A stretch of 64,000 nucleotides of DNA from an uncultured virus (IMG/VR IMGVR_UViG_2049941000_000847) (IMGVR_UViG_2049941000_000847); one strand, 5' to 3'; positions 338-45,182 are shown, counted from the first letter of the stretch. The notes: generated by a model not told the origin, from the sequence alone. Translations and numbers: made by a program.

Positions 338-352
338 GAAGGGTTCATGTGT

Positions 353-379: not shown

Positions 380-429
380 CCGATGCTGATAGGAGGGTTG
401 CTCCGGCATTTTAAGTTTTTGATAGTATC

Positions 430-888
430 TTAGATCAGTTTTCCGCCAGGAACACCGGCGTCTTCCAGCGCCTTCTTCAGTTTTTCGTCGCGTTCTGGCA
501 TGACATACCTATCAAGCTCGTTTCTCGGAACCTGTATGTGGTTGAACATGCCGCCTAGCTCAAGTATCTCGGATTCCTTTTCACCGATGCTAGGCGAAAT
601 ATCTACAGCATATACGTGTTCCTCGTCAAGGTCGTCGTCCCATTCGTCGGTACTATAGCTGTAACCAGTACGATACAGATGCTTCTCATCGTTCAAGCGA
701 TCCTTGTCGTCGGCATAGAGGCTGTTCACAAAGGCCAGCACGTACTTGATTTCCCCACGAACACACATTTCATCTGGATTTCCTGGATACTGTCCGATAT
801 GCATCTTAAATCCAAGCTCCGGATATACAGACTCGGCGGCTTCTTTTATTCGATCACATATATCGCGGCTATCCTTTTTTTTAGCATC
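430..888 (-). CDS. Hypothetical acidic protein, 5' end in gap
   Basis: Open frame with phage-like codon usage; no recognisable motif. Confidence 0.55.
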   Translation of the reverse strand, partial: DAKKKDSRDICDRIKEAAESVYPELGFKMHIGQYPGNPDEMCVRGEIKYVLAFVNSLYADDKDRLNDEKHLYRTGYSYSTDEWDDDLDEEHVYAVDISPSIGEKESEILELGGMFNHIQVPRNELDRYVMPERDEKLKKALEDAGVPGGKLI

Positions 889-1276
889 NNNNNNNNNNTT
901 TGTTTTCTGGTTCACGCGGTCTGCGAGGATATGGACGAGTTACTTTTGAAGAAAACAGTACAGTATAGTCAGCAATACTGTTGTCCATCTTGTCTCCTAT
1001 ATATGTCATGTCGTGGGTACCGGGACGACCGTCCACAAAATTCTTGTGCTCGTCCGGATTGTTCATGAACTTTTCGTAAGTTTTGTCGTCATATATCTCA
1101 AAGTTCTTCCCGGAATTTACCATGTACTCATAGTTTTTGTTCATTCTTTCCTCGAAATCCTTTTCAAAGTCGGCTTCGAAGATGACTGTGCGAATATCCT
1201 CGATGCTTTCAGAAACAGTCTTTGAAAAACCGGATTTCATCAATGAGTCGATGAACTCTTTTCTCTGCTTTTTCAT
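881..1276 (-). CDS. Leader-family (type A) protein, cargo unknown; 3' end at gap
   Basis: N-terminus MKKQRKEFIDSLMKSGFSKTVSESIEDIRTVIFEA; TATAAACT motif at 1306-1313. Confidence 0.75.
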   Translation of the reverse strand: MKKQRKEFIDSLMKSGFSKTVSESIEDIRTVIFEADFEKDFEERMNKNYEYMVNSGKNFEIYDDKTYEKFMNNPDEHKNFVDGRPGTHDMTYIGDKMDNSIADYTVLFSSKVTRPYPRRPREPENKXXXXC

Positions 1277-1316
1277 GGAGAACCTATAACGGTTTACACA
1301 AAATCAGTTTATACAA

Positions 1317-1342
1317 AAACCGGGTGCAAAAGCACCCGGTTT
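1317..1342. terminator. Rho-independent terminator hairpin
   Basis: AAACCGGGTGC-AAAA-GCACCCGGTTT perfect inverted repeat with flanking A/T runs. Confidence 0.75.
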
Positions 1343-1458
1343 CGCATTCCATTCCAACCTATCCAAGAATCGCACCAGATCCACCGGAATACTTCCTAGC
1401 ACGGTCCTCTGCGGTTTCAGCGTCTTCAAGGCTATCCTAGAATACTTCNNNNNNNNNN

Positions 1459-1848
1459 TTGCCAACAAGAACGGTTCCCTTGCGGATTGTACCTTCCTTG
1501 TACTGCTTCTTACGCAGATGAAGAATCACGGTAGAGGTGTACAGACCACCGGAGCCACCGGCAATCTTGGTAGTGTCACCATACCCGCTGATATTGGCAT
1601 ACACATGGTTCGTGATTAGCATCGGGATATCGAGACGGCTGAGACGAATAAGAATCGACTTGTACAGTCTCTTCAGTTCCTTCTGAGCCGTGAAGTCAGC
1701 GACGTGGTTTCCGGTCTGAATGTCCTTTCTTGACTTCTCGGTGTCAAGCATGCCCTGCGAGTCGATCACGAACGCGCACTTGTTCTCGTTCTTCAGCTTC
1801 TTGCCCTTGGCTGCTTCCAGTGCAGTAAGAATCTTGTCGAACGTTCCC
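1459..1848 (-). other. Variant duplicate fragment of uvsX (strain variant/assembly artefact)
   Basis: Nearly identical peptide to the internal uvsX region ~2263-2652 with many synonymous changes; lies in a short segment between N-gaps. Confidence 0.8.
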
Positions 1849-1883
1849 AATTCATCATAAAGTGTAATCACGANNNNNNNNNN

Positions 1884-3026
1884 GTCGATCTCCAAAGCCT
1901 CTTCATTTTCGTCTCCGGAAGCGAAGTTGACTGGCTTCAGGAGCGGATACACCTTCTTGACCCAGTCGTTGATCGGTTCGAAAATGGTGCCGATGGTGCT
2001 CTCCTTGTGCAGGTCGTATTCCTTGCAAACGATCCAGTCCTTCGGATCCTTGTTAGGGTCCTTGATCACGTACCAGTTGAAGTTGCCTGCCTTCTCAGGA
2101 CCGACCACTCCCTTCTTGTCGAACTTTGAAGCGCTCCACTTTTCAAGCAGCCCGGCCTCCTCTGCGAAGATGTGCAGACCGTACCACTTGTTCAACCCCT
2201 TTTCAAAGTTGAGGTAGATGTTCCCTTCGATGCCATCGCGGGTGAAACGGCTTTTAACTACCTTCGCTACGAGAACAGTGCCCTTGCGGATGGTGCCTTC
2301 CTTGTACTGCTTCTTTCTCAGGTGTAGAATGACCGTGGAAGCATACAGGCCACCGGAGCCACCGGCGATCTTCGTTGTGTCGCCGTATCCGCTGATGTTG
2401 GCGTACACGTGGTTTGTGATGAGCATAGGAATGTCGAGACGACTAAGTCTGATGAGAATGGACTTGTACAGTCTCTTCAGTTCCTTCTGAGCAGTGAAGT
2501 CAGCCACGTGGTTACCGGTCTGGATGTCCTTTCTGGACTTCTCCGTGTCAAGCATACCCTGCGAGTCTATGACGAATGCGCACTTGTTCTCGTTCTTGAG
2601 CTTGCGACCCTTCGCGTCTTCAAGCTGCGTGAGGATCTTGTCGAAAGTTCCCTTCAGCTCTTCGATGATGTCCTGCTGGATGATCTTGAACGACCCTTCG
2701 GGCAGACCGAAGCTGATGAGAGTGTCGTCAGTAACGGAGTTTTCCGTGTCGATGTAGTAGATGAAGTACCCCTTCTCGACCAGCGGACGGCAGAACGAAT
2801 AAGCCGCCACAAGGCTCTTGCCGGTGGAGTTTTCGCCGGAAAGCATGCACACGCGGTTTCCAGGGAACCCTCTTGTCATGTCACCGGACAGAACCGCGTT
2901 CAGCGTGTACGAACCGGTGTCGATCCATTCGCTGATCTCGCGACCAGTTTCGGAGTCGGCGATCGCGTCACCGGTCTTGATTGTCTTGAAAAAATCGAAA
3001 TTGGAAGCTACGCTTTTCTTTGCCAT
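1884..3026 (-). CDS. uvsX: UvsX/RecA-like recombinase (3' end in gap)
   Basis: WIDTGSYTLNAVLSG, Walker A GENSTGKS, YIDTE, VIDS, ITNHVY, GGSGGLYAS; ATG at 3026 with an upstream AAGGAG. Confidence 0.92.
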
Positions 3027-3055
3027 TTGTGTTTCTCCTTCGGCAATAATATAGA

Positions 3056-5333
3056 TTATTCGTTGCCGGTCGATGTCTGCTTCAAGGTTGAGAACCGACC
3101 ATCGTATTCCACGTCCACGATGCTGTCGAACATGTTCCGGAACTGCTCCCCACGGTGGGTTATCAGCCACGCGCTATCAATGGTTTCCAGCTTCGACCGC
3201 ACCAACTCGATCATGTCGGCTAGAGCCTCCATGTCGGTGGAGATGTCCAGCACCTCGTCCAGGAAGATGGTATTGATGTCGAAGTCTGCGATATTCAGCA
3301 CAAAATCGCGGAAAGCCATGGCGATCGCGAAGTTCAGCTTTCTCTTCTGCCCCTGGGAGAGCCCGTCGTACGTGTCAGCCAGGCCGAACCTGCTGCTGAA
3401 AGTGTAGTCCATCGCGCTGTCGAACTCGACCATGAACGGCAATCCGAACCTGGTAAGATTCCTGGCGATCGCCTTGTTCAGGCTCGGAACGAACGAAGAA
3501 AGCACGATCTTCTTGATGCCCGTGTCCTGGTACATTCCGTCGATAAACTTGGCTACGGATATGTCGTCAGACGTTTCGTTCAGCTTTTGACGGCCGCCTT
3601 CGATGCGCTTCTCGGTGTCTTCCAGCTTTCTCTGCGTCTTCGCGACGGCATCCTCGCTGGTCTCGTTCAGCTTCTCCGAGAGTTCCTTTTCCAAAGAAGC
3701 CTTCCTTGTTTCCATATCGGAGATGTTCGCCTTGATACCAGCGATTTCGTCCTTCTTGGCACCGGCCTTTGTGCGCAAACCGGACACGTTAGAAGACGCA
3801 TCGGCATATCGCTCTTCGATTCCCGAGAGCTTCTTCACACGCGCTTCGAGTTCCGCGACATTTTTCCCGCCAGCATTGGAGATGGATTCTTCACATCCGG
3901 CGATTTCTGACTTGATCGACTCCACCCTCGTATGGATGGGCATGTATGTGTTCTCGTTGAACGAGTCGAGTTCCGACTTGGCCGAGTCGTATTCGCCGGC
4001 CTTTTCTTTAAGGCCGGAAATTTCGTCCTTAATCGTCTCAAGTTCCGCGTTGGCATTCTCAAGTTCTGCCACGATGGGCTTCTTCTTGGAGAGCTCCTCA
4101 CGGTACTGCTTCCTGTATTCTTCCTTGACGTGTTCTACGTCCGCCTCTGTGGACGGCTTTCCGCATACAGGACAAGGAACACCGGACTTGGCTTCGGCGG
4201 CCTTGGCTTCTATCTTTTTGAGCTGCTCCTCGATTCCGGAGATCTTCGTCTCGTAAGAAGATATGGATCGCTCCAGTTCGTTCTTTCTCGTGATCTTGGT
4301 ATCGATGTTGGAACCGATTGTCACCCTTTCTTCGGAGCTGCAAATCGCATTGAGTTTCTGCTCAAGCACAGCCTTGCCGGAGACCGCGTTGTCGTATTCT
4401 GTCGAGAGAGATTCCAGCTTTTCCTTCAGTTCGGACAACCTGGTGATCGCGGAGATCGTGGTTGTGATACCCTTGTATTCGTCGAGATCGGACTTCGCTG
4501 CGTCGAGAACAGACTTCGCCTCAATGCCTTCTTCGACGATCGCATTGTACTCTTCCGTCTTGGTATTGACCGCGGTGTTCGCGTCGGAGATGGACTTCTC
4601 CAGACCTTCGATGTCCGTCTTGATTCTCTGAATACCGTTTTCCTTTTCCTCTTTCATTCTGGAAAGAATGTCTCGGAGTTCTTCGATGTCCGTCATGCCT
4701 TGGCGGATATCGCTTCCGAGAACCTCGAACGTCGTGTTGAGCTCGCGCAGTCTCTTCTTGTTGGCGTCCTTGATGCGGTCCAGGTTCATGGAGAGAATGG
4801 ACTCGATCAGGGCTCGCTTGTCCTTCGGGTCCATGTCGATGAACGGAATGGTCTGGATGGTGTTGAGGGAGATAACGTTCTCGAAGATGCGTTTGTCGAA
4901 GCCGAGCACCTCGTTCTCGATCAGCTTCTGCGTCGTGCCGCCGGCTCCCTTCTTCTCCCCCGGTCCGNNNNNNNNNNNNNNNNNNNNNNNNNNNNNNNNN
5001 NTTCTTCGTGAAGACGAAAGACGAGGTGCCGGACGGCTTCATGGTACGTTCGATGCAGTATTCGTCGGCTCCGTTCGCGTCGGTGCGATCGAATTCGAGC
5101 TTGACGAGAAGCGTCGCCTTGGTGTTTGTGTTGTTGCGCAGGTCGGCCTTGTTGATGTCGCGGTACGGGCTTCCGAAAAGCGCGAAGGTGAGGGCTTCGA
5201 CGATGGTGGATTTGCCAGCTCCGTTCGGTCCCTTGATCCAAGTGAGACCGTCGGTGAAATCGACCACGTTCTCATTGTTGCCATACGAGAGGACGTTTGA
5301 AAAGGTCAGTCTTTTGAGTTTTATCTTGTGCAT
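3056..5333 (-). CDS. gp46/SbcC-like recombination endonuclease ATPase subunit (split by N-gap at 4968-5001)
   Basis: Walker A GPNGAGKSTIVEAL, long coiled coil with CPVCGK zinc hook, signature LSQGQK, Walker B IFLDE, ITH. Confidence 0.93.
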
Positions 5334-5426
5334 TTTATGACGCGTGGCCGTGGATGTTTAGACGGTCCACGGGTAGAATATAGTATTTTTCAGGTAGTGG
5401 AAAACGGCTGAAATGAGATTAAAATG

Positions 5427-5549
5427 CTATTTTTCGTCCTTGTCGTCTTCGTCGTGGATGCCGAAAATGCATATGAACACGAGAGCACCAAGCATCGAAA
5501 GAATCAGGACCCAGGACGCCGTCGCTATGATGCTCTCAACGACGCTCAT
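5427..5549 (-). CDS. Small membrane protein (40 aa)
   Basis: MSVVESIIATASWVLILSMLGALVFICIFGIHDEDDKDEK; GGAG RBS; ATGA overlap with the upstream ORF. Confidence 0.55.
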   Translation of the reverse strand: MSVVESIIATASWVLILSMLGALVFICIFGIHDEDDKDEK

Positions 5550-5710
5550 CTCTTGTCTCCGGTTATCTTGTCGAACACAAAAAACACAAAATCGCAGAGA
5601 ATAACGAAGAGATATACGGAGATGGACACGAAAGCCAGCAGCACAACAAACGCTATTGAAAGCGCAGAGTAAAAGACTTTTGAGAGCCATTTAGTAATCT
5701 TGTTGAGCAT
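5546..5710 (-). CDS. Small membrane protein (54 aa), below the ORF-track cutoff
   Basis: Hand translation MLNKITKWLSKVFYSALSIAFVVLLAFVSISVYLFVILCDFVFFVFDKITGDKR; stop overlaps the next ATG. Confidence 0.55.
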   Translation of the reverse strand: MLNKITKWLSKVFYSALSIAFVVLLAFVSISVYLFVILCDFVFFVFDKITGDKR

Positions 5711-5728
5711 GCTGGCTTTTGTCCTCGC

Positions 5729-6328
5729 TTAGCACTCGTAGTTCTTATCGAAAACTTCGGGCGCGTTTGGAGCGATCGACCCGTTTGGAAGAAGCACGAT
5801 CTTGTAACCCGGAGCAACTGAAAGAGGAGCGTCCGGCTGCCAGCTAAGCTTGATGGTCAACGGCTTTTCAGTTGTCCAGTACGTGCATTCCTGGCCACCC
5901 TTCTTTCTCCACATGGTGCCTTCGGGGTTGGCAGGTTTATCTTCCCACATGTCTCTGGCCGGGACATATTCCATCTTGTTCCCGCTGTCATCAACGCCGT
6001 CGTCGATTATCAAGTCGCCTTTCTTGGCATACGCCTTGCCTTCTCTAGACATGACTTCTTCGTCTTCCTCGGCGATGCGACCCTTCTGAAGCTTTCCAAG
6101 CTTTATGCAAGGCTTGCCTTCCGTGGTTCTCATCAGTTCGATCACTTCGGCGTTCTCTGGATAATGGAGTTCTTCGCCATCGATGACGGTTCCGTTCGCC
6201 ATCTTTATTCCAGCGGTTTCTTCCGATTCGAAAATCACCGACCGGATTTCGTTGATGCTTTCGCAGAGCGAGCTGGAAAAACCGGCTTCTCTGAGGGCTC
6301 TCATGAATTCTATTTCGTTTTTCTTCAT
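5729..6328 (-). CDS. Leader-family (type A) protein with PGDYG-like cargo domain
   Basis: Leader MKKNEIEFMRALREAGFSSSLCESINEIRSVIFES; cargo SREG..AKKGDLII..EYVP and APGYKIV..GSIAP..VFDKNYE resemble the PGDYG-family pattern (by eye); AGGAGG RBS. Confidence 0.75.
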   Translation of the reverse strand: MKKNEIEFMRALREAGFSSSLCESINEIRSVIFESEETAGIKMANGTVIDGEELHYPENAEVIELMRTTEGKPCIKLGKLQKGRIAEEDEEVMSREGKAYAKKGDLIIDDGVDDSGNKMEYVPARDMWEDKPANPEGTMWRKKGGQECTYWTTEKPLTIKLSWQPDAPLSVAPGYKIVLLPNGSIAPNAPEVFDKNYEC

Positions 6329-6343
6329 ATAATCCTCCTACTT

Positions 6344-6769
6344 TTAATTTTCCTTTTCGAATTCGATTCGTTTTATCATATCAGTATCTGTGTCCATGAT
6401 AATTACTTTGTGCTCATAGTCAATTGGATAATTCGACCAATAATAATAAAGTGTACAAGGAACATCGCATCCAAGTACAGTAACCGGAATCGTGTATCCT
6501 TCAGTCGGTACGTCTGATGTCGATGGAATCTCTCCCTTTATTATTGAACATCTAGCATCGCCAAACCTTTTTTTCAGTTCTCCGGCGAATTCGAATCCAC
6601 AGTTGCGAGAAAATTCATAATCTTTTGCATCCTCGCGAGGTATAAGAATAATTTTCTCTTCTTCTCCTTCAAATATCGCTTTTCTAATTTCACAAATACT
6701 TTCACATATCGATCTAGAAAAACCAACCCTCTTTAGTGCATTAAGAAATTCAATTTCGTCATTCGTCAT
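6344..6769 (-). CDS. Leader-family (type A) protein, unknown AT-richer cargo
   Basis: MTNDEIEFLNALKRVGFSRSICESICEIRKAIFEG; late motif at 6813-6820. Confidence 0.8.
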   Translation of the reverse strand: MTNDEIEFLNALKRVGFSRSICESICEIRKAIFEGEEEKIILIPREDAKDYEFSRNCGFEFAGELKKRFGDARCSIIKGEIPSTSDVPTEGYTIPVTVLGCDVPCTLYYYWSNYPIDYEHKVIIMDTDTDMIKRIEFEKEN

Positions 6770-6789
6770 ACAATTCTCCTTCCCATACG

Positions 6790-6820
6790 GGTGGGGCTTG
6801 GTATACGTAAATAGTTTATA
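6790..6820 (-). promoter_or_regulatory. Conserved late-promoter plus 5'UTR block (copy 1)
   Basis: TATAAACTATTTACGTATACCAAGCCCCACC; near-identical at 8926-8956 and similar at 10593-10620. Confidence 0.7.
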
Positions 6821-6836
6821 CTGTCGAGAACCAGTT

Positions 6837-7445
6837 TTACCGCGACGACGCCATTTTAAGCATCCGCAAAACCCTTGGATTCACGAGTTCCGGTTTAGGC
6901 GGGTTTTCCGGACGAATTTCCCAGTCGCGGTCGCCGTACGTGTCGAGGATGTACTGGACGACTGCCTGGCTTCTGCTCTTCCCGGCATAACAATGGATGT
7001 AGAAGTCCTTGTCGATGTTCCTGTCTATGAACTCGACGATCTGCCTCGCTTGGTCCATGTCTATGCCACGAGCGAACCTTCCGCGTCTACCGATATTCAA
7101 AATCGGTTCGGTGATGTCGTCGAAGTAAATCTTCAATATGTTCGACCCGTTCCGTTCGATGAACCAAGGCCAGTGTATGGAATCCTCATGCGACAGGTTT
7201 CCCGGTGTCGAGCAGATCTCGATACAAGCGGCATTGGACGGAGGAGCGTCCACCCACCCGTTCTTTGCCATCTCCTTCGCGAAATCCTCGGCACTGAAGC
7301 AGTACAATTTCTGGACACGGCCATCTTCCAATTCTTCTTCGCTCTCGAAGATGGCTTTTCTGATCTCGTTTATGCTCTCGCACAGAGAATCCGGAAAACC
7401 GGCTTTTCTAAGGGATGATATGAACTCTGTTTCGGTTTTATTCAT
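6837..7445 (-). CDS. Leader-family (type A) protein with CX5R (PTP/dual-specificity) phosphatase domain
   Basis: Leader MNKTETEFISSLRKAGFPDSLCESINEIRKAIFES; FDD loop; catalytic motif IHCYAGKSRS. Confidence 0.85.
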   Translation of the reverse strand: MNKTETEFISSLRKAGFPDSLCESINEIRKAIFESEEELEDGRVQKLYCFSAEDFAKEMAKNGWVDAPPSNAACIEICSTPGNLSHEDSIHWPWFIERNGSNILKIYFDDITEPILNIGRRGRFARGIDMDQARQIVEFIDRNIDKDFYIHCYAGKSRSQAVVQYILDTYGDRDWEIRPENPPKPELVNPRVLRMLKMASSR

Positions 7446-7528
7446 GATTGTTTTGCCGTGTCGGCTTCTCCNNNNNNNNNNNNNNNNNNNNNNNNNNNNN
7501 NNNNNNNNNNNNNNNNNNNNNNNNNNNN

Positions 7529-8094
7529 TCGGCGACCAGCTTGTCAAGGTCTCCGCGAGTGCTGCCAGAGCCGGAGGAGTCCATGTCGTATACACCGAGA
7601 TTCTTGAACTTGCTGTAGGTTTCTTCCCGCTCCCTCTCGGCTTCCTTTTTTATGATCTCCTTTTTCACGAAATCGACGAAGTTGCCGGCCAGCTTCTTGG
7701 CGCGATTACGCACATCCACTATCTCGCTGTTGATTGTCGGAATCTTCTTCTGTATGTATCGCTTCAGCATGAAAATTATCTTCGGTTCCGTCGAGGAGCT
7801 ATGGTCGTATTCGTCGAGTATCTGCTGGAAATTGATGTCGCTCATGTCCGAAAGGTACTTTCGGGCCTTGTCTCCACCGCCCTTTCCGGCAACCGAGTCA
7901 ACGAAACCGTGCACGAACTGGTACAAGTCGTTTCTGCACTGGTTTCCGCTGCGGTCGCTGTTATATCTGGCGCACCCTCTTATGAACAACTTCTTGTCTT
8001 CGTCCGTGGTGAACGACTCGAACATCGACCCGGAATACAACACGGAGTCGACGAAGCTGCTTATCGCTTGGAGTTCATTGTGATAAAGCGGCAT
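7529..8094 (-). CDS. Hypothetical protein (3' end in gap)
   Basis: Open frame behind a TATAAACTA motif (8124-8132); contains MFES near the N-terminus. Confidence 0.65.
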
Positions 8095-8159
8095 AAATGC
8101 CTCTTTTAGACCAGATTCTACATTAGTTTATAACTTTTGCGCTGTGCTTTTTGACATGA

Positions 8160-8194
8160 AAAGGGGGCTCCGATCAAGAAGCCCCCTTTTTTTT
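8160..8194. terminator. Bidirectional terminator hairpin
   Basis: AAAGGGGGCT...AGCCCCCTTT followed by a T-run. Confidence 0.7.
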
Positions 8195-8213
8195 GAATGT
8201 TCTAGAGCTGAGA

Positions 8214-8900
8214 TTACTCTTCGCAATCCCTGTCGTAAATGAACGCCCCGTTGGACACATCCGTTCTCCAGCAAAGAACTGCTTTTCCGGACACGTCTGC
8301 GTCACCATGTACCTGCGCCCATTCCGATATGTCCGCGTTCCCGTATACCTTGGCATTCTCGTACACTTTGGCATCACCGGACACTTCCGCATTGTCTTCG
8401 ACAACGGCATCGCCATACACTTTGGCACTATCGTACACCTTTGCTTCATCAGCAACCCAGCAATTGCCTTCGTGACCAAGGTTGCGCTCTCCTTCAACCC
8501 AACCACCGAGATCGCCTTCTTCGACGACAAGCGTGCCATCCGAGGAGCCGGATTCAACTTCAATGTGTTTTAGAGCGACAATTCTGTGAAGGGTGCGACC
8601 GTTCCATTCCATCGTTTCGTTGGTGAGCTCATACTTCTTTTCAGGAGTATAGTCCTCTTCCTTCTCGGCGTTGAATTCATAGTCCAGGGCATCGCTGTCT
8701 TTCATCACCCTCTTCGTCTTGTTGTAGGGGTCTCCCCAGCTTGAGCTATCATCCCTTTTCCATATTGTGGCGTTCTTTCTCTTTGCCGCTTCCGATTCTT
8801 CGAACACGGCACGTCTGATTTCATTTACGCTTTCACACAGCGAGGCGGAAATACCGACCTTTCTCAACGCATTCAGGAATTCGATTTCACTCCTATTCAT
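8214..8900 (-). CDS. Leader-family (type A) protein with left-handed beta-helix (hexapeptide) cargo
   Basis: Leader MNRSEIEFLNALRKVGISASLCESVNEIRRAVFEE; KKYELT..GRTLHRIVAL..GDLGGWVE followed by AKVYDS/AKVYGD/AEVSGD repeats. Confidence 0.85.
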   Translation of the reverse strand: MNRSEIEFLNALRKVGISASLCESVNEIRRAVFEESEAAKRKNATIWKRDDSSSWGDPYNKTKRVMKDSDALDYEFNAEKEEDYTPEKKYELTNETMEWNGRTLHRIVALKHIEVESGSSDGTLVVEEGDLGGWVEGERNLGHEGNCWVADEAKVYDSAKVYGDAVVEDNAEVSGDAKVYENAKVYGNADISEWAQVHGDADVSGKAVLCWRTDVSNGAFIYDRDCEE

Positions 8901-8925
8901 ACTATTCTCCTCCGCTCACATTAGT

Positions 8926-8956
8926 GGTGGGGCTTGGTATACGTATGTAGTTTATA
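8926..8956 (-). promoter_or_regulatory. Conserved late-promoter plus 5'UTR block (copy 2)
   Basis: TATAAACTACATACGTATACCAAGCCCCACC. Confidence 0.7.
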
Positions 8957-8970
8957 ATTACGAGACGGTC

Positions 8971-10068: not shown

Positions 10069-10564
10069 CAAGGTTTTCTTCATGAAGATTTCCTTCTGTG
10101 TCAATCCTGTACCGTTTTCCGTCTAGTTTGACCTCGGCATATCCTTTGTCGAAGTCGTCGGCATCATCAAACCACTGATCAGGAGACAGCAGGTTTCCTT
10201 CCTTGCCGATGAAGTTATATTCTCCATTCAATCTGACACGAACATATCCTTCCCAGAAATAACAGACATAATCAAACCACTCATCGCCCTTCCATAGAAG
10301 ATTCCCGTCTTTGTCGATGAAGTTGTGTTTTCCGTCCAGTACGACCTCAGTATATCCTTCTTCGTCGAAGTCGCTGACATAATCAAACAAACTTCTGTCA
10401 TGCGTCTCGTTATATTTCTCCACCTTTTCTTCAAAAGAAAGGGATTCTTCAGGAGAGGCTTCTTCAAAAATAACCTTCCTTATATCATTAATGCTCTCGC
10501 AGATTGATCTGGAGAACCCAACCTTTCTCAATGCTTCGACAAATTCAACTTCACTCTTTTTCAT
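10055..10564 (-). CDS. Leader-family (type A) protein with WG-like repeats
   Basis: MKKSEVEFVEALRKVGFSRSICESINDIRKVIFEE, then EKYNETHDRSLFDYV and GY..V.L.G..NFI.K.GNLL repeats. Confidence 0.85.
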   Translation of the reverse strand: MKKSEVEFVEALRKVGFSRSICESINDIRKVIFEEASPEESLSFEEKVEKYNETHDRSLFDYVSDFDEEGYTEVVLDGKHNFIDKDGNLLWKGDEWFDYVCYFWEGYVRVRLNGEYNFIGKEGNLLSPDQWFDDADDFDKGYAEVKLDGKRYRIDTEGNLHEENLDEEE

Positions 10565-10644
10565 ATCACACCCCTTCCCTTAGGATGGACACGGCTTTTG
10601 GTATACGCATTTAGTTTATAAATTAAAGAGAGGATTTCCAAAGG

Positions 10645-12111: not shown

Positions 12112-12161
12112 CGAACTGAACACAGTTTATAGGTCCTCGGTTAGCCCTTAATATAGTATTT

Positions 12162-12839
12162 TCAGTTCAGGACTTTTTTGAGGAATCCTAGACTGTTTTT
12201 GAGAAGCCTGTCTCTCGCTTCTTGATCGGACTTCTCGTCTCCGATCGCGAGTTTCGAACGAACTACCCCACACGTCTTCACGGTTGGGAACTCGAGCCTG
12301 CATCCCGTCAGCAACGCTTCACATGCCAGGAACTTTTCCGTGGTGTCTATGTGGGTGCTGGCGAGGGGTTTCGGGAACAAAGCCCGTTCTCCATACATTT
12401 TTTCGTTGACGCTCGATATCAGGTCGAACGCCGACTTGTTGATGCCGAAGTTGGAAATGGAAAGGTGGTTTCCGTTCAGTATGCTCCTGACGGTTTTCCA
12501 CTTGTTCCGGTCGAACTCCGGTTTGATGTTCTTTGTTATTATAAATGATCCACGCCGCTTCTCTCTTATAGGGAAATATGTAACGGTTGGTTCCTGACCG
12601 CGAAGCATTTTTCTGTGAATCTTCACAAGGTCTCTCTGCAGCTCGCAGTCCATGTCAACTATTATGACGGAATCATATCCGCCCGAGAAAAGCCTGCGTA
12701 TGGTCTTGTCCAGGTCAGGCAACGACTTGCCTGGCATCATGATCGTTATGTCCGGGAGGCTGTTCTGGCGATCTACCGTGGCGTTATGCCGTATAGGTAT
12801 GTCGGTTGATGTAGTGATTCCTATCAGCGCGGTTGCCAT
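12162..12839 (-). CDS. Hypothetical protein, possibly degenerate GT2-like glycosyltransferase
   Basis: GYDSVIIVDMDC (DxD-like), SISNFGI. Confidence 0.45.
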   Translation of the reverse strand: MATALIGITTSTDIPIRHNATVDRQNSLPDITIMMPGKSLPDLDKTIRRLFSGGYDSVIIVDMDCELQRDLVKIHRKMLRGQEPTVTYFPIREKRRGSFIITKNIKPEFDRNKWKTVRSILNGNHLSISNFGINKSAFDLISSVNEKMYGERALFPKPLASTHIDTTEKFLACEALLTGCRLEFPTVKTCGVVRSKLAIGDEKSDQEARDRLLKNSLGFLKKVLN

Positions 12840-14576
12840 TTACCAAACCTGCGGTGTGTAATTTTTGGCGTAGAACTTCGGAACGGCCTTAGTTTCCTTC
12901 TTTTTCCGTCCGGTCGTCTTGCGTTCCTTCTTCGGCTTGCTCTTCTTGTTTGGGTCCGCCGTTATGGAACCTTCAAAAACGCCTCGGAGATTGATTTCCT
13001 TGACGGGGAAAAGGTCGTCCTTGTAGTACTTGAGTCTCGTTTTATAGTGCTTGAGAGAATAGTTTTCCTTCGTGTTCCCGCCGCGGGTGGTATAGGAGCA
13101 GTCGTCGAAAATGTCGTATACGCGTGCGATCTCCTTGTCCTTGTGGAACCGGATGACGCGCCCGATGGACTGGACCACCTCGTACATGGACTTGGAGAAC
13201 TCTGCGAAAACCAGATTGTGCAGGAACTCGATGTTGACGCCCTGCTTCATGGTGCCGTAGGTGGCGATGATTATGTTCCCCTTGGAGGAATTGACCTCGC
13301 CACGCATTTTATCTCGTTCCAGCGGAGACACTTCGCCTATGATCACGTGGTACTTGAACTGCGGATACTTTTCCAGGAGGTACTGATGCATATCTTCCAG
13401 AGTATCCTTCTTCTTGTATAGAATGACCGTGTTCTGCTCGGTGTTGATGTACCCGCTCGATATGAGCAGATCCATGACCACTTTGCGGGATCCGTTGTTG
13501 GTGAGCACAGCGAACTCGGTTTTGTAGTTCTGCCGGCACATGTACATCGCCTTATCCTGAGGATAGGGAATGCGTATGCCGTATATTTCCAGCGGGGAGA
13601 GAACTCCCTTCTGGATTAGCTCGTAGCTGCGGACGACGACTTCTTTTCGCCCGAGGGCAGATTCGATCAAAGCCGCGTCCAGTCCATTGTCCGGCAACGT
13701 GCCGGATACGCCGACCTTGAAGTCTTCCGCGTTGACGCACTTGTCCAGGATTTCGCGGATGACCTCGCCCCTCGTTCCGTGGCACTCGTCGATTATGACG
13801 GCATTGAACACGGTGAAGAACTTGTCCGGTTTGTTCTGGAGGCTCTGCCAAGTCGATATCGTGATATCCTTGAGCATGACCTCTTCGCCCAGGTTGAGAT
13901 CGGAAAGCTTCTGCTTGTCGGATGCGGTCAGCTTGTCCTTGGATTCCCCGTGGATAAGCGTGCAGTAATCGTCGACCTCTTTCCAGCCGTAGTCGTCTTT
14001 GAAGTTGGAGTACAGCTGTTCGACAAGGGCTGAGGAAGGCGTGATTATGAGAACTTTCTTGCGTTCCTTTTCGAGGAGGTAGCGGGACATTATGTACATG
14101 GCAAGCGACTTGCCGGCCGAAGTGCATGCCATGAGAGACATGCGCCTGCCGTTGATTGCCTTGAGGATCAGCCTGACCTGGTGGTCATATGGAACTATCT
14201 TCTTGCCGTCCTTGTTGACCATACCAAGAGTCTCCGCGTATTCGCGGATGCTTTCTTCTGTTATTGGCGTTTTTGGCGTAAAAAGGGCACGTATTTCGTC
14301 CGATATGGCCAATTTGTAGTTTGGAAACATCTTCGTCCTGACCTTGAGCATTGGTAGCAGGCCGATTGGAAGAAGATGCTTTTTGGCGTCATAGATATGC
14401 TCGACCGCGTCGGTTCTTCCCTGTTCGTACTCCCATGTAAACATTTTCTTTTCATTGAAGTAGGAGAACCAGTTGTATATGTGTTTGTTGATGGTGGACG
14501 CTTCTTCCTCGGTACAGTCGAGGAAGTCTATCTTGGCATAGTTGCCTTGCGCCTTCGAACAGTATATAGTAGCCAT
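12840..14576 (-). CDS. uvsW: UvsW-like SF2 DNA helicase
   Basis: PYDHQ, TSAGKS, ISTWQS, IIDECH, GVSGT, ATYGTMKQGVNI, QSIGR. Confidence 0.9.
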   Translation of the reverse strand: MATIYCSKAQGNYAKIDFLDCTEEEASTINKHIYNWFSYFNEKKMFTWEYEQGRTDAVEHIYDAKKHLLPIGLLPMLKVRTKMFPNYKLAISDEIRALFTPKTPITEESIREYAETLGMVNKDGKKIVPYDHQVRLILKAINGRRMSLMACTSAGKSLAMYIMSRYLLEKERKKVLIITPSSALVEQLYSNFKDDYGWKEVDDYCTLIHGESKDKLTASDKQKLSDLNLGEEVMLKDITISTWQSLQNKPDKFFTVFNAVIIDECHGTRGEVIREILDKCVNAEDFKVGVSGTLPDNGLDAALIESALGRKEVVVRSYELIQKGVLSPLEIYGIRIPYPQDKAMYMCRQNYKTEFAVLTNNGSRKVVMDLLISSGYINTEQNTVILYKKKDTLEDMHQYLLEKYPQFKYHVIIGEVSPLERDKMRGEVNSSKGNIIIATYGTMKQGVNIEFLHNLVFAEFSKSMYEVVQSIGRVIRFHKDKEIARVYDIFDDCSYTTRGGNTKENYSLKHYKTRLKYYKDDLFPVKEINLRGVFEGSITADPNKKSKPKKERKTTGRKKKETKAVPKFYAKNYTPQVW

Positions 14577-14682
14577 GTTGTGGGATGCGGTCGACGCACC
14601 TCGTGTATAATATAGTATTTTTTGAGGAGGATTTACACGCGTTTTTGTTATAAACTATTGTCAAGCGACGCCGAGTTATATC

Positions 14683-16317
14683 ATGAATAAAGCATTTGTT
14701 GAGTTCATTTACAGACTTGAAAACATGTCTGGTGAACGGGAACTCTGCGAAGCGGTTCTGCGGGGGTATCTCGCGTGCCATCCGATTTTCGAGGATGCCG
14801 AAGGACGTGCCGCCAGCAAAACAAGAGACTTTATCAGAACGAGAATCGGTGAAGACCGTTCGAATGATGTTGCAAGAGACCAGAACGGAGAACCTATACT
14901 GACGGCAAGTGGAAAAGAACAAACGGTTGTTGATTATTTTGANNNNNNNNNNNNNNNNNNNNNNNNNNNNNNNNNNNNNNNNNNNNNNNNNNNNNNNNNN
15001 NNNNNNNNNNNNNNNNNNNNNNNNNNNNNNNNNNNNNNNNNNNNNNNNNNNNNNNNNNNNNNNNNNNNNNNNNNNNNNNNNNNNNNNNNNNNNNNNNNNN
15101 NNNNNNNNNNNNNNNNNNNNNNNNNNNNNNNNNNNNNNNNNNNNNNNNNNNNNNNNNNNNNNNNNNNNNNNNNNNNNNNNNNNNNNNNNNNNNNNNNNNN
15201 NNNNNNNNNNNNNNNNNNNNNNNNNNNNNNNNNNNNNNNNNNNNNNNNNNNNNNNNNNNNNNNNNNNNNNNNNNNNNNNNNNNNNNNNNNNNNNNNNNNN
15301 NNNNNNNNNNNNNNNNNNNNNNNNNNNNNNNNNNNNNNNNNNNNNNNNNNNNNNNNNNNNNNNNNNNNNNNNNNNNNNNNNNNNNNNNNNNNNNNNNNNN
15401 NNNNNNNNNNNNNNNNNNNNNNNNNNNNNNNNNNNNNNNNNNNNNNNNNNNNNNNNNNNNNNNNNNNNNNNNNNNNNNNNNNNNNNNNNNNNNNNNNNNN
15501 NNNNNNNNNNNNNNNNNNNNNNNNNNNNNNNNNNNNNNNNNNNNNNNNNNNNNNNNNNNNNNNNNNNNNNNNNNNNNNNNNNNNNNNNNNNNNNNNNNNN
15601 NNNNNNNNNNNNNNNNNNNNNNNNNNNNNNNNNNNNNNNNNNNNNNNNNNNNNNNNNNNNNNNNNNNNNNNNNNNNNNNNNNNNNNNNNNNNNNNNNNNN
15701 NNNNNNNNNNNNNNNNNNNNNNNNNNNNNNNNNNNNNNNNNNNNNNNNNNNNNNNNNNNNNNNNNNNNNNNNNNNNNNNNNNNNNNNNNNNNNNNNNNNN
15801 NNNNNNNNNNNNNNNNNNNNNNNNNNNNNNNNNNNNNNNNNNNNNNNNNNNNNNNNNNNNGAATCTCCCATGGAAAGGTGAGGAGTGGTTTGATAATGTC
15901 GGCAGCTTCCATGAAGGATACGCCACGGTCGAACTTGATAACAAATACAACTGGATCGACAAGGACGGGAATTTCCTATGGAAAGGCGAGAAGTGGTTTG
16001 ATTATGCCGGCATCTTCGACGAAGGACCTGCCATGGTCAAACTGAACGGAAAATATAACTTCATCGACAAGGACGGGGATCTCCTGTGGAAAGGCGAGAA
16101 GTGGTTTGATGGTGCCAACAACTTCGACGAAGGATATGCCCGGGTCGAACTTGATAACAAATACAACTGGATCGACAAAGACGGAAATCTCCTATGGAAA
16201 GGTGAGGAGTGGTTTGACAATGCCAGCTTCTTCTTCGATAAAGGATATGCCGAGGGCAGCCTGAACGGAAAATGGTATAAGATCGACAAAGAAGGAAATT
16301 TGCACGATATAACATAG
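14683..16317 (+). CDS. Leader-family (type B) WG-repeat protein, paralog 1 (middle in a 918-nt gap)
   Basis: MNKAFVEFIYRLENMSGERELCEAVLRGYLACHPIFED; C-terminal 36-aa repeats; TATAAACTA at 14649. Confidence 0.8.
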   Translation: MNKAFVEFIYRLENMSGERELCEAVLRGYLACHPIFEDAEGRAASKTRDFIRTRIGEDRSNDVARDQNGEPILTASGKEQTVVDYFXXXXXXXXXXXXXXXXXXXXXXXXXXXXXXXXXXXXXXXXXXXXXXXXXXXXXXXXXXXXXXXXXXXXXXXXXXXXXXXXXXXXXXXXXXXXXXXXXXXXXXXXXXXXXXXXXXXXXXXXXXXXXXXXXXXXXXXXXXXXXXXXXXXXXXXXXXXXXXXXXXXXXXXXXXXXXXXXXXXXXXXXXXXXXXXXXXXXXXXXXXXXXXXXXXXXXXXXXXXXXXXXXXXXXXXXXXXXXXXXXXXXXXXXXXXXXXXXXXXXXXXXXXXXXXXXXXXXXXXXXXXXXXXXXXXXXXXXXXXXXXXXXXXNLPWKGEEWFDNVGSFHEGYATVELDNKYNWIDKDGNFLWKGEKWFDYAGIFDEGPAMVKLNGKYNFIDKDGDLLWKGEKWFDGANNFDEGYARVELDNKYNWIDKDGNLLWKGEEWFDNASFFFDKGYAEGSLNGKWYKIDKEGNLHDIT

Positions 16318-16346
16318 AATTAGCTGCCTTTCACATAACAATTCAA

Positions 16347-16373
16347 AACGGGCACCAACCAGTGCCCATTTTT
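16347..16373 (+). terminator. Terminator hairpin
   Basis: GGGCAC-CAACCA-GTGCCC followed by a T-run. Confidence 0.6.
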
Positions 16374-16414
16374 GTTATAAACTTACACTGTACGATGCTT
16401 CCAGAATTTGATTC

Positions 16415-17870
16415 ATGAACGAATCGGAAAAAGAATGGGACTTCATTAACTATCTTCGGAGGGCTGGTTTTCCCGGCCCGGTTTGCGAAAGCATAAACGA
16501 TATCAGAAAGGTTGTTTTCGAGGGAGAAGATGATTACGCAAAACCGGAACATACACCAGACCGTTCCACGGAGAACGGCGATAAAATAGACTGGAGTTCT
16601 TTCCCGGATCCTGACATCCAGAAAGGCATCGATCTGATGCGAAAGATAAACGAACACGGCTACGAGGCATACATAGTCGGTGGATGCGTGCGCGACATCG
16701 TCAACGGTAGCAAGGACGTCCATGACGTGGACATCGCAACCAATATGCCAATCGCAGAACTGAAGCGTGCGTTCAACACGGCCGATAACGGAGGTGAGAA
16801 GCATGGCACGATTCTCGTGGAAAACGATGGTGTCATGTTCGAGGTAACTCAATTCAGAACAGAAACCGGTTATAGCGACGGCCGCCATCCTGACAATGTA
16901 TCGTGGACCGATTCGTTCGAGGACGATACCAGGCGCCGAGACTTCACAATAAACGCAATGGGAATCGACGCGGACGGGAATGTTATCGACTACAACGGCG
17001 GAGTGGCGGACCTGCGAAACAGGATATTGCGAACCGTCGGAGACCCGNNNNNNNNNNNNNNNNNNNNNNNNNNNNNNNNNNNNNNNNNNNNNNNNNNNNN
17101 NNNCCGAAGACGCCCTACGCATAATCCGTGCAATGCGCTTTGCCGCAAGGTTTGACATGACAATAGCGGAAGATACCCTGAAGGGGATGATCGCTTGCAA
17201 GGGGCAGTTGAACAGGATATCGATGGAACGCGTTCGAGACGAGCTGATAAAAACCGCCGAGTACGGAGCAAAGCAGTTCGCCTCTGTCGTGTCGCTTATG
17301 AACGATACTGGGTGTGGCGAGATCATAGATCCAAACAGCTTCATCGACTGGGAAAAAGCTAGAGACCTGGCAGATACGAGAGCAACAGATCCGCTGTTCG
17401 CCGAGATGGACAAAGATGTCATTGTATCGCTGGCGTTGCTGTTCTACGGAACGAACGATGCGAAGGCTGCAATGCAGTATTTCCGGTGCACGGTCGAGCA
17501 GATAAGGAGCGTCGGTTTCATTTACCGGAATCTGGATAATTATCGCCGGCTCGGAGAGCTCGATCCGATCGGTGCTATAAATGTTGTGAAGAACAAGGAC
17601 TTCGACCGGTTGCGGGAAGTCAATCATGCCATATACGGCGACGACGGTGATTATGCGGATCTTATCCCAACTGTCCGGATGTTGATTCGTGAAGCCGTAC
17701 CAAGGTTCAACAGCATATCCAGGATGATGAGGGAGATCGGAATTCAACCAGGTCCAAATTATGGATCCGTGCTGGAAAAGGTCGCAAATAGAATGTGCGA
17801 AATGTACATCTCAGGTGTTGAGCCGACCGATGAGCAGATCATGGAAATGCTCTTGGAATATGCCCAATAA
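16415..17870 (+). CDS. cca: Leader-family (type A) class II CCA-adding tRNA nucleotidyltransferase/poly(A) polymerase (split by gap)
   Basis: Leader WDFINYLRRAGFPGPVCESINDIRKVVFEG; AYIVGGCVRD, DVDIAT, EVTQFRTE..YSDGRHPD, RRDFTINAM, EDALRIIRAMRFAARF, ERVRDEL. Confidence 0.9.
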
Positions 17871-17907
17871 TTATAAACTCCATACATAAGAACCACAGGC
17901 GGTTCCA

Positions 17908-19938
17908 GTGAAATCCTTGTCAAAAACGGAAATTGAGTTTCTCGACTCTTTGAAGAAAATCGGCATCTCGAAGTCTCTGTGCGAGTCGGTGAACGGCATA
18001 CGGAGAGCCGTTTTCGAAAACGATACGGTTGGAACGCATGGAGTGCTTATGTCCGACGAAGACATCGCCGAGCAGTATAGCGGCTGGTGGATCGGTAGCA
18101 TCAAAATGTATAAAGACGGTGATGTCGGGCTTGAGTTCTACTATCCAAACGCCGACGATATCGACTATGATTCCTATACGTACATGATTATCGGGAAGCA
18201 TCATGACGGCCGGTATTATGACAAAAACGATAACTGGACACCGGAAAGCGAGTTCAAGCGCATAGTGGATGTGGTCAAGCTGGCAAAGAATGTGTTGAAG
18301 CCTGAAGAAGATATCGTTTTCAACAACAAGGAAGAGTTCGATAACTGGGTAGAAGAGAACAGCAGAAAGGTCGGCGACGTTTTCGAATCCATGGAAGACA
18401 CCGACTACGAGAACCCCCTGAGCATGTACGGTGTTCCGATGTCCGAACGGGAAAACATTAAAAAGCAGACGGACGCATTCAGTTCTTGGATGTGTCGCAA
18501 CAACAAGTATGGGATTCTCGCCAACGACTATTTCAAAGGCGGTGAAACACATGATGAAGTTATTGTTGAACTCGCTAAAGAAGCATCAAGAGATTCTGGT
18601 ATGGAAATATCATTTGATGCCGCGAAGCGTGTCGTGGATTCAATTTTCGGCTATGTCAGCAAGGCGATGGAGATGAAACACAAGGAGGATTTGACTATGC
18701 CCCGTAATGAGGCTGAAATTAGAGAAAACTCCGATGGCTATCTTTTCCTTGAATCCATCTGCTCCATATGCGACAAGGCCGAAGCGAGCGCCATCATAAC
18801 CGTGTTCAATGCGGTGTACCCGGAACACGCGATAAGCGAGTCGACAAACAACATACGGAAGGAGGTTTTCGAAGGTGCCGGTGATATAACTTGTGGTTTT
18901 GATCCGGAATCTGCTATCAGAGATTATGAAGATTACTGCGATGAACAGAGCATGATTAGTGAATGCAGAGATGAAATTGCGAAAAAATACTTCAAGGAAT
19001 TGTGCGATCATATCGATGATCTTGAAAATGAGGCATGTTATGTATGGTCGAGATTTAAAAATGCAATACGCGATGGCGTTCAAGGCGAAGAATTAAAGGA
19101 AATCGAGAAAGAGTATCATCGGTATGCTACCGAGATGAAGGTGTCGCTAAATGAACTAAAAGACAAAGTAAACGAAAAGATTATAGAACTAAATAAATCC
19201 AATCCAGATGAGTACCCGCTGGTATTGATTGAATCTCGCTTAGGTGAAATGTTCGCCCCTGCGATGAAAAAGGTAAAGAACGTTGCTCTCGCTGGTGCGC
19301 TGGCGGGCAACATGGCGCTTGCCCAGCCAAGCGACAACGCGGAATACGACCAGACCGCCGACAACACCGACGCTCCCGCCTACTATGAAGACGGTTGGGA
19401 CAACATGACCCAAGACAAGTTGAACGCGCTCAACAGGGAAGTCGGTGCAAAGGTGACGGTGGTCGGAGACAGCCCGATCGCAGACATATCCGACATGGGT
19501 TATCTTGAACGGCAGAAGAAGGACGTAGACAAATACAAATACGTTGACATGGACGAACTTTTCTCCAACGAGGTCGGGCGCGTCTCCTCTGACCATGACA
19601 GAGACTTCGTGATGGGGTTCGGTCACGGGGAATCCGGTGACATACATGAAGCCGCCAGACTTGCCGCTGCCGCCGCGGAAAAGGATTTCCATGAGGTCAT
19701 GTCGGACGAGATGGAGTTGATAAATTACGCAAACGCACACTCTTCCAATGTCGACCTCCCTCTCAGCGAAAACGATGAATTGTACGACGTGAAGTACTTC
19801 TACGACGAAGAATCGCAGGTGTATCACGCGTTCGTGATGACGGTCGAGCGCGGCTATACAGAATGGGCCCTCGACCACAACATGGAAAGTTCTTCAAGCG
19901 CCTCTGAGCGCATGAACAGGATCTCGAAGATCAGGTAG
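17908..19938 (+). CDS. Leader-family (type A) multi-module acidic protein with internal leader copies
   Basis: N-terminal EIEFLDSLKKIGISKSLCESVNGIRRAVFEN; internal FLESICS..AISESTNNIRKEVFEG; internal signal-like MKKVKNVALAGALAGNMALA. Confidence 0.8.
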   Translation: MKSLSKTEIEFLDSLKKIGISKSLCESVNGIRRAVFENDTVGTHGVLMSDEDIAEQYSGWWIGSIKMYKDGDVGLEFYYPNADDIDYDSYTYMIIGKHHDGRYYDKNDNWTPESEFKRIVDVVKLAKNVLKPEEDIVFNNKEEFDNWVEENSRKVGDVFESMEDTDYENPLSMYGVPMSERENIKKQTDAFSSWMCRNNKYGILANDYFKGGETHDEVIVELAKEASRDSGMEISFDAAKRVVDSIFGYVSKAMEMKHKEDLTMPRNEAEIRENSDGYLFLESICSICDKAEASAIITVFNAVYPEHAISESTNNIRKEVFEGAGDITCGFDPESAIRDYEDYCDEQSMISECRDEIAKKYFKELCDHIDDLENEACYVWSRFKNAIRDGVQGEELKEIEKEYHRYATEMKVSLNELKDKVNEKIIELNKSNPDEYPLVLIESRLGEMFAPAMKKVKNVALAGALAGNMALAQPSDNAEYDQTADNTDAPAYYEDGWDNMTQDKLNALNREVGAKVTVVGDSPIADISDMGYLERQKKDVDKYKYVDMDELFSNEVGRVSSDHDRDFVMGFGHGESGDIHEAARLAAAAAEKDFHEVMSDEMELINYANAHSSNVDLPLSENDELYDVKYFYDEESQVYHAFVMTVERGYTEWALDHNMESSSSASERMNRISKIR

Positions 19939-19941
19939 GTA

Positions 19942-29903: not shown

Positions 29904-29913
29904 NNNNNNNNNN

Positions 29914-44969: not shown

Positions 44970-45182
44970 ATGAACGACGCTCCATACACCGAATCCGTCA
45001 AACTTGCCGGGTCGCAGAATGTGAATAGAGCGGTGGAGAAAATGATCACGTATCTCGTGAACGGGAACGACAACGACATGAGGAACTGCATAACCGAATT
45101 GTCCGAGTCGATCGTTCAGGAAAACGAGGATAGAATACTGCAGATGTTGTTCGAGAACAAGGGTGGTGATACAGATGTCTGA
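44970..45182 (+). CDS. Small prohead core protein candidate (gp67/gp68 position)
   Basis: Between portal and protease; late motif at 44927. Confidence 0.55.
   Translation: MNDAPYTESVKLAGSQNVNRAVEKMITYLVNGNDNDMRNCITELSESIVQENEDRILQMLFENKGGDTDV

Follow-up and report, generated by a model that had tools for sequence, protein, structure and literature searches.

The 64,000-nucleotide (nt) stretch of DNA analysed here (hereafter, the window) comes from an uncultured virus, IMGVR_UViG_2049941000_000847, and contains, within positions 881-19938, nine open reading frames (ORFs) that share an N-terminal leader of about 34 residues, recognized from the ORF listing and an alignment and followed by proteins that we denote cargos. 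The leader ORFs start at 1276, 6328, 6769, 7445, 8900, 10068 and 10564 on the minus strand and at 16415 and 17908 on the plus strand, and are designated below by these starts; the window includes 23 runs of N (1362 N), in which further copies could be hidden. The genes, with their scores against the leader profile, are as follows.

430..1276, minus strand: leader gene 1, cargo without assigned family; 72.6 bits
5729..6328, minus strand: leader gene 2, second in the operon that starts with 6769; cargo without assigned family, PGDYG-like as a weak lead; 77.1 bits
6344..6769, minus strand: leader gene 3, cargo without assigned family; 77.1 bits
6837..7445, minus strand: leader gene 4, CX5R (dual-specificity-phosphatase-like) cargo, phrog_5614; 77.8 bits
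8214..8900, minus strand: leader gene 5, beta-solenoid / hexapeptide repeat cargo; 76.3 bits
8971..10068, minus strand: leader gene 6, P-loop kinase (AAA_33, polynucleotide-kinase-like) and CX5R phosphatase-like domain; 74.3 bits
10055..10564, minus strand: leader gene 7, WG-repeat cargo; full-length model with hairpin, hinge and cargo; 78.2 bits
16415..17870, plus strand: leader gene 8, CCA-adding enzyme (PolyA_pol head and RNA-binding domain); 72.6 bits
17908..19938, plus strand: leader gene 9, 73-kDa cargo without assigned family, with an internal partial leader and a hydrophobic segment; 84.0 bits

Two of these genes extend across gaps. ORF 1276 continues over the N run 889-898 into ORF 430-915, and its relative P0016 is a single protein of 298 amino acids (aa); ORF 16415 continues over the N run 17048-17103 to 17870, and its homolog in the related locus L007 is intact.

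When the profile, built from the nine leader sequences, was run on every stop-to-stop frame in all six frames of the window, the nine leader ORFs scored 72.6-84.0 bits and the runner-up, an ORF inside the helicase, 11.2 bits; clear copies in the 64 kb thus number exactly nine, none of them outside 881-19938. Ten columns are invariant in all nine ORFs (M1, E7, F8, L12, G16, E23, I28, R29, F33 and E34). An earlier note, made from the sequence alone, had placed the nine ORFs at the same starts; the regular expression that it offered for the leader turned out to be slightly too strict, given that 1276 has SES and IED, and 16415 has DF, at the respective positions. Within ORF 17908, positions 18829-18879 hold a partial copy of the second helix of the leader (ISESTNNIRKEVFEG, 13.5 bits), which opens a segment of ~130 aa that is lacking in a 547-aa relative (P0023); the arrangement suggests recombination of a further leader cassette into ORF 17908.

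Downstream of the leader, the nine proteins diverge, as the earlier note maintained, and their cargos fall in different Pfam and PHROG families. The CCA-adding enzyme gives a PolyA_pol match of 115 bits in Pfam, and the kinase of 10068 an AAA_33 match of 63 bits along with the PHROG annotation 'polynucleotide kinase'; WG repeats are present in the 10564 cargo (Pfam), and the hexapeptide or beta-solenoid character of the 8900 cargo, weak in Pfam, is accompanied by a match of 148 bits to phrog_5070. Both phosphatase-like matches (7445 and 10068) are under the Pfam cut-off (18-21 bits vs 33.5), and the HCxxGxxRS signature is visible in the translations of both cargos. The remaining four of the nine cargos have no family match, one of them (6328) with the weak PGDYG lead. 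Among the cargo labels proposed in the earlier note, those of CCA enzyme, kinase, WG repeats and LbH-like solenoid (through phrog_5070) stand, the phosphatases stay below the cut-off and the PGDYG-like domain is only a weak lead. PHROG matches start past the leader, at residue 87 in the 8900 protein and residue 99 in the 7445 protein, and these cargo families therefore exist elsewhere without it. The predicted mature cargos span 12.4-73.1 kDa, with isoelectric points (pI) of 4.2-5.1. In locus L005, from a close relative (94-98% identical), a deletion of ~113 nt relative to window positions 7211-7323 truncates the phosphatase-like cargo of the 7445 homolog.

The leader evolves under protein-level selection. 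For the 36 pairs in an ungapped block of 28 codons, the proportion of synonymous differences (pS) is 0.89 and that of nonsynonymous differences (pN) is 0.24, and the identities at the three codon positions of the same block are 0.70, 0.82 and 0.36, respectively. Synonymous sites are saturated and amino acids are kept; thus, recent gene conversion or an RNA element is disfavoured as the source of the similarity.

Structure prediction and conservation statistics were based on 35 aligned leaders from the 38 carriers accepted in the database search described below. AlphaFold2 predicts a helical hairpin with helices at residues 3-15 and 19-34, in line with the helical leader anticipated in the earlier note; the predicted local distance difference test (pLDDT) values by leader block are 91, 97 and 94 over residues 1-30, then 68 and 44. 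The hairpin persists when the 10564 protein is modelled at full length; here, cargo residues 44-166 have pLDDT >90, and the sole internal stretch with pLDDT <50 comprises residues 36-38, right after F33-E34; the models suggest a disordered hinge directly after the end of the hairpin at [IV]-F-E. F33 and E34 are each at least 90% conserved, and conservation ends at E34; the terminus is [IV]FE in all nine window leaders and in 32 of the 35 aligned ones, the remainder ending in VME (2) or VYD (1). The hydrophobic-x-Glu terminus that had been noticed at the outset is therefore a property of every leader in the window, with model confidence collapsing right behind it. F8 is invariant in 35 of 35 leaders. 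Cys22, with a conservation of at least 90%, lacks a conserved Cys or His that could pair with it.

The earlier note had listed a match of the leader to a known non-virion domain among the outcomes that would refute its proposal; no relative of the leader was seen in Pfam, PHROG or PDB. The leader alone matched nothing in Pfam, UBA included; no PHROG match of the full leader proteins starts inside the leader; a PDB sequence search with the leader gave nothing significant (best E 0.33), nor did a Foldseek comparison of the 42-residue leader model with the PDB (best E 2.1), in which the rows for UBA, RuvA domain III and the N-terminal module of EF-Ts are non-significant, with E of at least 3.9. 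A tblastn search of the leader against 50,697 GenBank phage records returned no match. A search of the leader profile against 1.84 billion (1.84e9) representative proteins from 50%-identity clusters, at a threshold of E 1e-3, gave 44 matches, of which 38 were accepted as leader carriers. The other six (P0035, P0036, P0038, P0040, P0043 and P0044, including a UBA-repeat protein) were dropped as spurious: several weak stretches, in unrelated families.

The leader begins at residue 1-9 in 36 of the 38 accepted carriers. The two exceptions are P0002, with a mis-called start (the promoter motif of its locus, L003, falls within the supposed extension), and P0018, a chimeric record that joins the N-terminus of a ClpP-like protein to the 17908 protein. 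In the 32 carriers that were scanned against Pfam, the cargos include WG repeats (7), beta-solenoid (2) and, once each, an AAA_15/AAA_21 ATPase, AAA_33, a Fib_succ_major domain and a 2H-phosphoesterase-like domain, the last below the Pfam cut-off; 19 have no family. A profile search for cargo diversity had been suggested in the earlier note, and the scanned carriers indeed include varied cargo families. In the relative P0031, almost directly after the leader come a hydrophobic stretch rich in Gly and Ala and the C-terminal module also present in ORF 17908 (window about 19270-19938). The nine-sequence leader profile led to one IMG/VR locus and five short metagenome contigs only, megablast of window positions 42-62 kb against GenBank phages gave no match, and a portal-based IMG/VR search for longer related contigs found none.

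Expression of the leader genes may be linked to that of virion genes through a promoter-like motif. The late promoter of phage T4 sits at -13 to -6 of late transcripts and is read by gp55; gp55 was not found in the window. The motif TATAAACT occurs in the window at 24 sites compared to 0.81 expected, with 0 of 100 shuffles reaching 24; none of the sites is inside a gene, and 20 of the 24 have a same-strand start 8-75 nt downstream. Sites in the leader region are as follows.

1306..1313 (leader gene 1), 6813-6820, 8125-8132, 8949-8956 and 10613-10620: TATAAACT, minus strand
14649-14656, 16376-16383 and 17872-17879: TATAAACT, plus strand

Of the nine leader genes, six carry the motif 36-56 nt upstream, 6328 and 10068 are second in units that start with it, and 7445 lies behind an N run, downstream of the motif-bearing ORF 8094, in agreement with the earlier note. 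The six related contigs conform to the same pattern: the motif is found within 100 nt upstream of 6 of the 10 leader genes, and the other 4 directly follow another gene. It also precedes the portal gene, the operon of ORF 44970, protease and scaffold, the tail fibre gene, the gene at 14683 that encodes a second type of leader (type 2, see below) and ORFs 24154, 28705, 32750, 50276, 50355, 53737 and 63842, so that leader genes share it with head and tail genes, in keeping with the earlier note; it is absent upstream of UvsX, helicase, UvsY and gp47, and the start of gp46 lies across an N run. The motif, known here from sequence alone, agrees in 6 of 8 positions with the T4 late promoter, given as TATAAATA in a passage of PMC1524935. 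A scan of positions 1-20000 for sigma-70 promoters found 21 sites vs 18.3 expected and is uninformative.

Several features adjoin the motif. Terminator-like hairpins abut it before 1276 and 16415; ACATACGTATACCAAGCCCCAC, or a variant of it, forms a conserved untranslated box immediately behind the motif in three leader genes (6790-6812, 8926-8948 and 10590-10612) and also in loci L003 and L004; and the palindromic AGTTTATAAACT, at 32779-32790, 50315-50326 and 63889-63900, places the motif on both strands between divergent genes.

The leader genes belong to a phage that, judging by its sequence, is a deep, uncultured branch of the T4 superfamily, because its portal protein is less than 60% identical to every matching phage record (2575 matches; 26-29% identity among the 15 matches listed). 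UvsX, UvsY, gp46/gp47-like proteins and a helicase are encoded in the window, where no tRNA genes were found, and the DNA is best represented in bovine gut metagenomes. The proteins relevant to head assembly and processing are encoded as follows.

43260..44900, plus strand: T4-type portal, Portal_T4 250.8 bits; TATAAACT 72 nt upstream
44970..45182, plus strand: small 70-aa ORF, first in the protease operon, LFEN near the C-terminus; TATAAACT 43 nt upstream
45163..45897, plus strand: gp21-family prohead serine protease, the proposed cutter; Peptidase_S77 94.4 bits (cut-off 27)
45913..46884, plus strand: scaffold-like acidic helical protein, the proposed docking partner; in the position of T4 gp22, no family match
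20607..21191, plus strand: second protease, ClpP-like, CLP_protease 53.6 bits; adjoins the leader cluster

A protein with an SLT domain is encoded after the scaffold-like gene. The gp21-type protease that the earlier note had assigned near a scaffold is thus recovered as Peptidase_S77, beside the T4-type portal and the scaffold-like gene.

The end of the leader served as the model for a cut-site-like motif, [FLMIVY][FLMIVY]E[SGAN], which we counted in the head-core operon set, consisting of the small ORF 44970, the protease, the scaffold and the SLT protein (943 aa in total). The motif occurs 13 times in the 943 aa of the head core compared to 30 times in the 13,899 aa of the other non-leader proteins (odds ratio 6.5, Fisher p = 1.5e-6); within-protein shuffles of the head-core proteins have 2.18 motifs on average, and 0 of 5000 reach 13. 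Six of the nine cargos have no site beyond the leader boundary; among these, 8900 has a single internal site, its boundary, VFEE, being unmatched. Internal sites are present in several cargos, with five along the length of ORF 17908. A late ORF of no known family, 53737-55800 (687 aa), contains 7 motifs against 1.2 expected, two of them within the first 23 residues, and is a candidate further head-core or ejected protein. The following gene in the leader cluster, probably in the same operon as leader gene 4, has a site of its own.

7438..8094, minus strand: ORF without assigned family, upstream of leader gene 4; MFES site close to the N-terminus (residue 24)

Comparison with close relatives reveals gain and loss of whole cassettes, each with promoter, leader and cargo. 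Locus L007 (91-95% identical) is colinear with window positions 13328-14656 and resumes at 16369; it lacks an entire cassette of promoter, type 2 leader and WG gene, with the junction in the repeated TTGTTATAAACT. Leader genes 6328 and 6769 are missing from contigs X10 and X7, which come from two other studies and run from 5738 to 6847 by way of 28-35 other letters that include the promoter; X10 also joins 14627 to 16376 and skips 8496-10730. The joints in X10 and X7 were read at 85% likeness with long flanks, and window parts without contig cover were left out of the evidence. The plug-in interchangeability proposed in the earlier note is in this sense directly visible, and it fits the same picture as the T-even internal-protein loci, whose products are described, in the relevant part of PMC3012670, as diverse and with only the conserved capsid-targeting sequence (CTS) in common.

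The cassette missing from L007 carries one of four paralogs with the type 2 leader.

14683..16317, plus strand: type 2 leader gene, leader ends IFED, WG-repeat C-terminus; cassette absent from close relatives
28705..29937, plus strand: type 2 leader paralog, leader ends IMED; inside the structural block
22594-24087 and 29873-31423: further type 2 paralogs, N-termini in N runs

The type 2 leader of 14683 and 28705 reads MNK.FV.FI.RLE.MSG.R.LCEAVL.GYLACHPI[FM]ED and, in a profile-profile comparison, resembles the main leader over 26 residues (83.6% probability, E = 8e-6). All four paralogs share a central domain of ~250 aa with a CTCTCRWNH motif and C-terminal WG repeats, and three of the four lie within the structural gene block.

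Two further features concern other genes of the window. The UvsX-like gene is part duplicated (window 1465-1848 vs 2269-2652, 84% DNA identity) on the two sides of a 10-N gap, probably as two strain variants joined in scaffolding, and a transposase gene lies among virion genes.

42107-43048: transposase gene (phrog_506, 268 bits), flanked by the genes for tail fibre and portal; TATAAACT 75 nt upstream

Parallels to the leader are known from several systems. In encapsulins, cargo-loading peptides bring unrelated enzymes into an HK97-fold shell; these peptides are usually C-terminal, remain uncleaved, bind the shell and involve no delivery to another cell, whereas the leader described here is N-terminal. 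The MuF polymorphic toxins of temperate phages, like polymorphic toxin systems in general, combine a constant N-terminal delivery module with interchangeable C-terminal effectors, and for MuF a route via the capsid has been proposed; the leader is not a MuF domain (no Pfam match), and no cargo is a recognizable toxin. The closest parallel is the CTS of T4, carried by the internal proteins IPI, IPII, IPIII and Alt and removed by the prohead protease gp21, likewise an N-terminal peptide shared by otherwise unrelated proteins and ending in hydrophobic-x-Glu, in a phage with the same kind of portal and an S77 protease of the gp21 family. Passages of PMC9026906 state that gp21 cuts after L/I-x-E and that, in the 10-residue CTS, residues 4 and 7 (F7) determine targeting and residues 8 and 10 processing. 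In NC_000866, the T4 leaders read MKTYQEFIAE for IPII and IPIII and MKTFKEFTST... for IPI; the start MKT..EF compares with MKK.E.EF[IVLM] in the window, with an essential or invariant Phe in both, whereas the cut site in its T4 position (residues 8-10) is not conserved in the present leader. Small basic cargos are typical of IPI-III, not of Alt, and those in the window reach 73 kDa and include recognizable enzymes. At the other extreme, inner-head and ejection proteins of the giant phages SPN3US and phiKZ bear N-terminal propeptides of 20 to >100 residues, which a gp21 homolog removes by cutting behind Glu and which are inferred to direct proteins into the prohead, as reported in PMC5694885. 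In the same account, these propeptides sit on families of paralogs, unlike the single portable module on unrelated cargos seen here, and no sequence relation of the leader to them was found; the SPN3US ejection protein gp47, once mature, begins with a membrane segment, resembling the hydrophobic stretch after the leader in P0031 and in the C-terminal module of ORF 17908. The 34-residue leader falls between the two known extremes.

Taken together, these observations make it moderately probable, on the strength of sequence and models, that the leader is a longer, folded variant of the T4 capsid-targeting sequence that loads proteins into the head; those predictions of a capsid-targeting, protease-released leader that can be addressed by sequence all hold. 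By analogy with T4, we infer docking, cleavage, packaging and ejection of the leader proteins along the following lines. The leader genes would be transcribed from the T4-late-type promoter TATAAACT together with head and tail genes; the two-helix hairpin (residues 3-34) would dock each protein on the prohead core, the likeliest partner being the scaffold-like 45913 protein; after shell closure, the S77 protease 45163 would cut behind [IV]-F-E, at the end of helix 2; and the cargo, of 12-73 kDa, would be freed within the head, to exit alongside the DNA when the next cell is infected. Because promoter and leader together form a self-contained address module, cargo genes would be swappable by recombination.

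Several considerations weigh against this scheme. The likeness to the T4 CTS spans only about 8 residues, too short for statistics, and the leader is a predicted two-helix hairpin of 34 residues compared to 10-19 unstructured residues in T4, where the CTS, at 10, is threefold shorter. The cut-site motif was chosen after the sequences had been seen, and shuffling destroys the amphipathic periodicity of helices, so that motif counts in coiled coils could be inflated. The putative 'late' class of the genes with TATAAACT relies on the T4 analogy, and the motif also precedes the transposase gene (42107) and ORFs 12123 and 21886, which have no assigned function. The second, ClpP-like protease (20607) is encoded beside the leader cluster, and no major capsid protein could be recognized in the window, for which ORFs 50355, 51861 and 53737 were considered. 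Finally, the cargos are acidic whereas the T4 internal proteins are described in a section of PMC9026906 as basic.

The acidity of the cargos, which are ordinary cytoplasmic-type enzymes such as the CCA-adding enzyme and the kinase, would suit an uncleaved docking or oligomerization domain that, late in infection, recruits proteins to one common phage or host partner in the cytoplasm, such as a factory for replication, translation or assembly, and keeps them outside the head throughout. The confident prediction of a 34-residue hairpin in place of a short peptide, the nearly invariant Cys22 and the invariant Gly16 turn, which suit a binding surface, and the faint, non-significant fold resemblance to UBA, RuvA domain III and EF-Ts (E of at least 2) are compatible with such a role. 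We nevertheless consider it rather unlikely: no known domain matches the leader, and a docking domain leaves unexplained the Glu that ends the domain after I/V-F, before a disordered hinge, and does not account for the motif enrichment in the head-core operon or for the presumed expression of tRNA-repair-type enzymes only with structural genes. A different fate would await the cargos if the leader did target them to the prohead and was cut there, with the cargos serving as transient core or assembly parts that are degraded or expelled like T4 gp22, gp67 and gp68, and not as effectors. Portions of PMC9026906 and PMC5694885 report that most T4 core proteins are cut up and leave the head, and the five motif sites in ORF 17908, the internal sites in several other cargos and the location of type 2 leader proteins within the structural gene block fit this fate; it appears improbable all the same, given that no part in assembly suggests itself for enzymes such as the CCA-adding enzyme and the kinase-phosphatase, that six of the nine cargos lack a motif site beyond the boundary (8900 having one internal site instead) and that the cargo set varies between close relatives, as suits accessory effectors better than assembly parts.

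Some features of the cassettes would also be expected if the shared 5' end had no protein function at all and were a by-product of recombination or gene conversion, or an element of the mRNA or of translation initiation: the cassette breakpoints lie within the repeated promoter sequence, and several genes have the conserved untranslated box after the promoter. The divergence at synonymous sites (pS 0.89 and third-position identity 0.36, vs pN 0.24), the conservation of the peptide in 35 leaders of the 38 carriers, drawn from 50%-identity clusters, and the confident AlphaFold2 fold of the leader make this explanation hardly credible. None of these alternatives explains together the conserved Glu at the leader end, the hinge, the promoter of late type and the abundance of the motif in core proteins.

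The nature of the cargos invites a more specific proposal, which we offer tentatively, as possible and short of probable. The CCA-adding enzyme and the kinase-phosphatase might form a head-borne RNA-end repair kit, addressed by the hairpin and injected with the DNA, that reverses tRNA damage by abortive-infection nucleases before the phage genes are expressed; in other words, RNA-end enzymes may act as pre-loaded counter-defence. The 2H-phosphoesterase-like cargo of a relative can be cited alongside, its match being below the Pfam cut-off. Should this proposal be correct, the hairpin would be a natural, transferable 'load into capsid' domain for enzymes of up to about 70 kDa.

Loading of proteins into the head by a leader is not new in principle; the form of the leader and the cargo are. 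If the capsid-targeting interpretation is valid, a defined tag of 34 residues that brings its own release site would offer a practical way to load foreign proteins into capsids, and sequence alone would suffice to list the proteins that an uncultured rumen phage probably packages and injects, among them enzymes for which the searches made found no literature report as leader-addressed capsid cargo. The T4 principle of head loading would then have evolved into a folded, modular address domain, and near-identical phages would renew their cargo repertoire by exchanging cassettes at the promoter, much as counter-defence genes are expected to behave.

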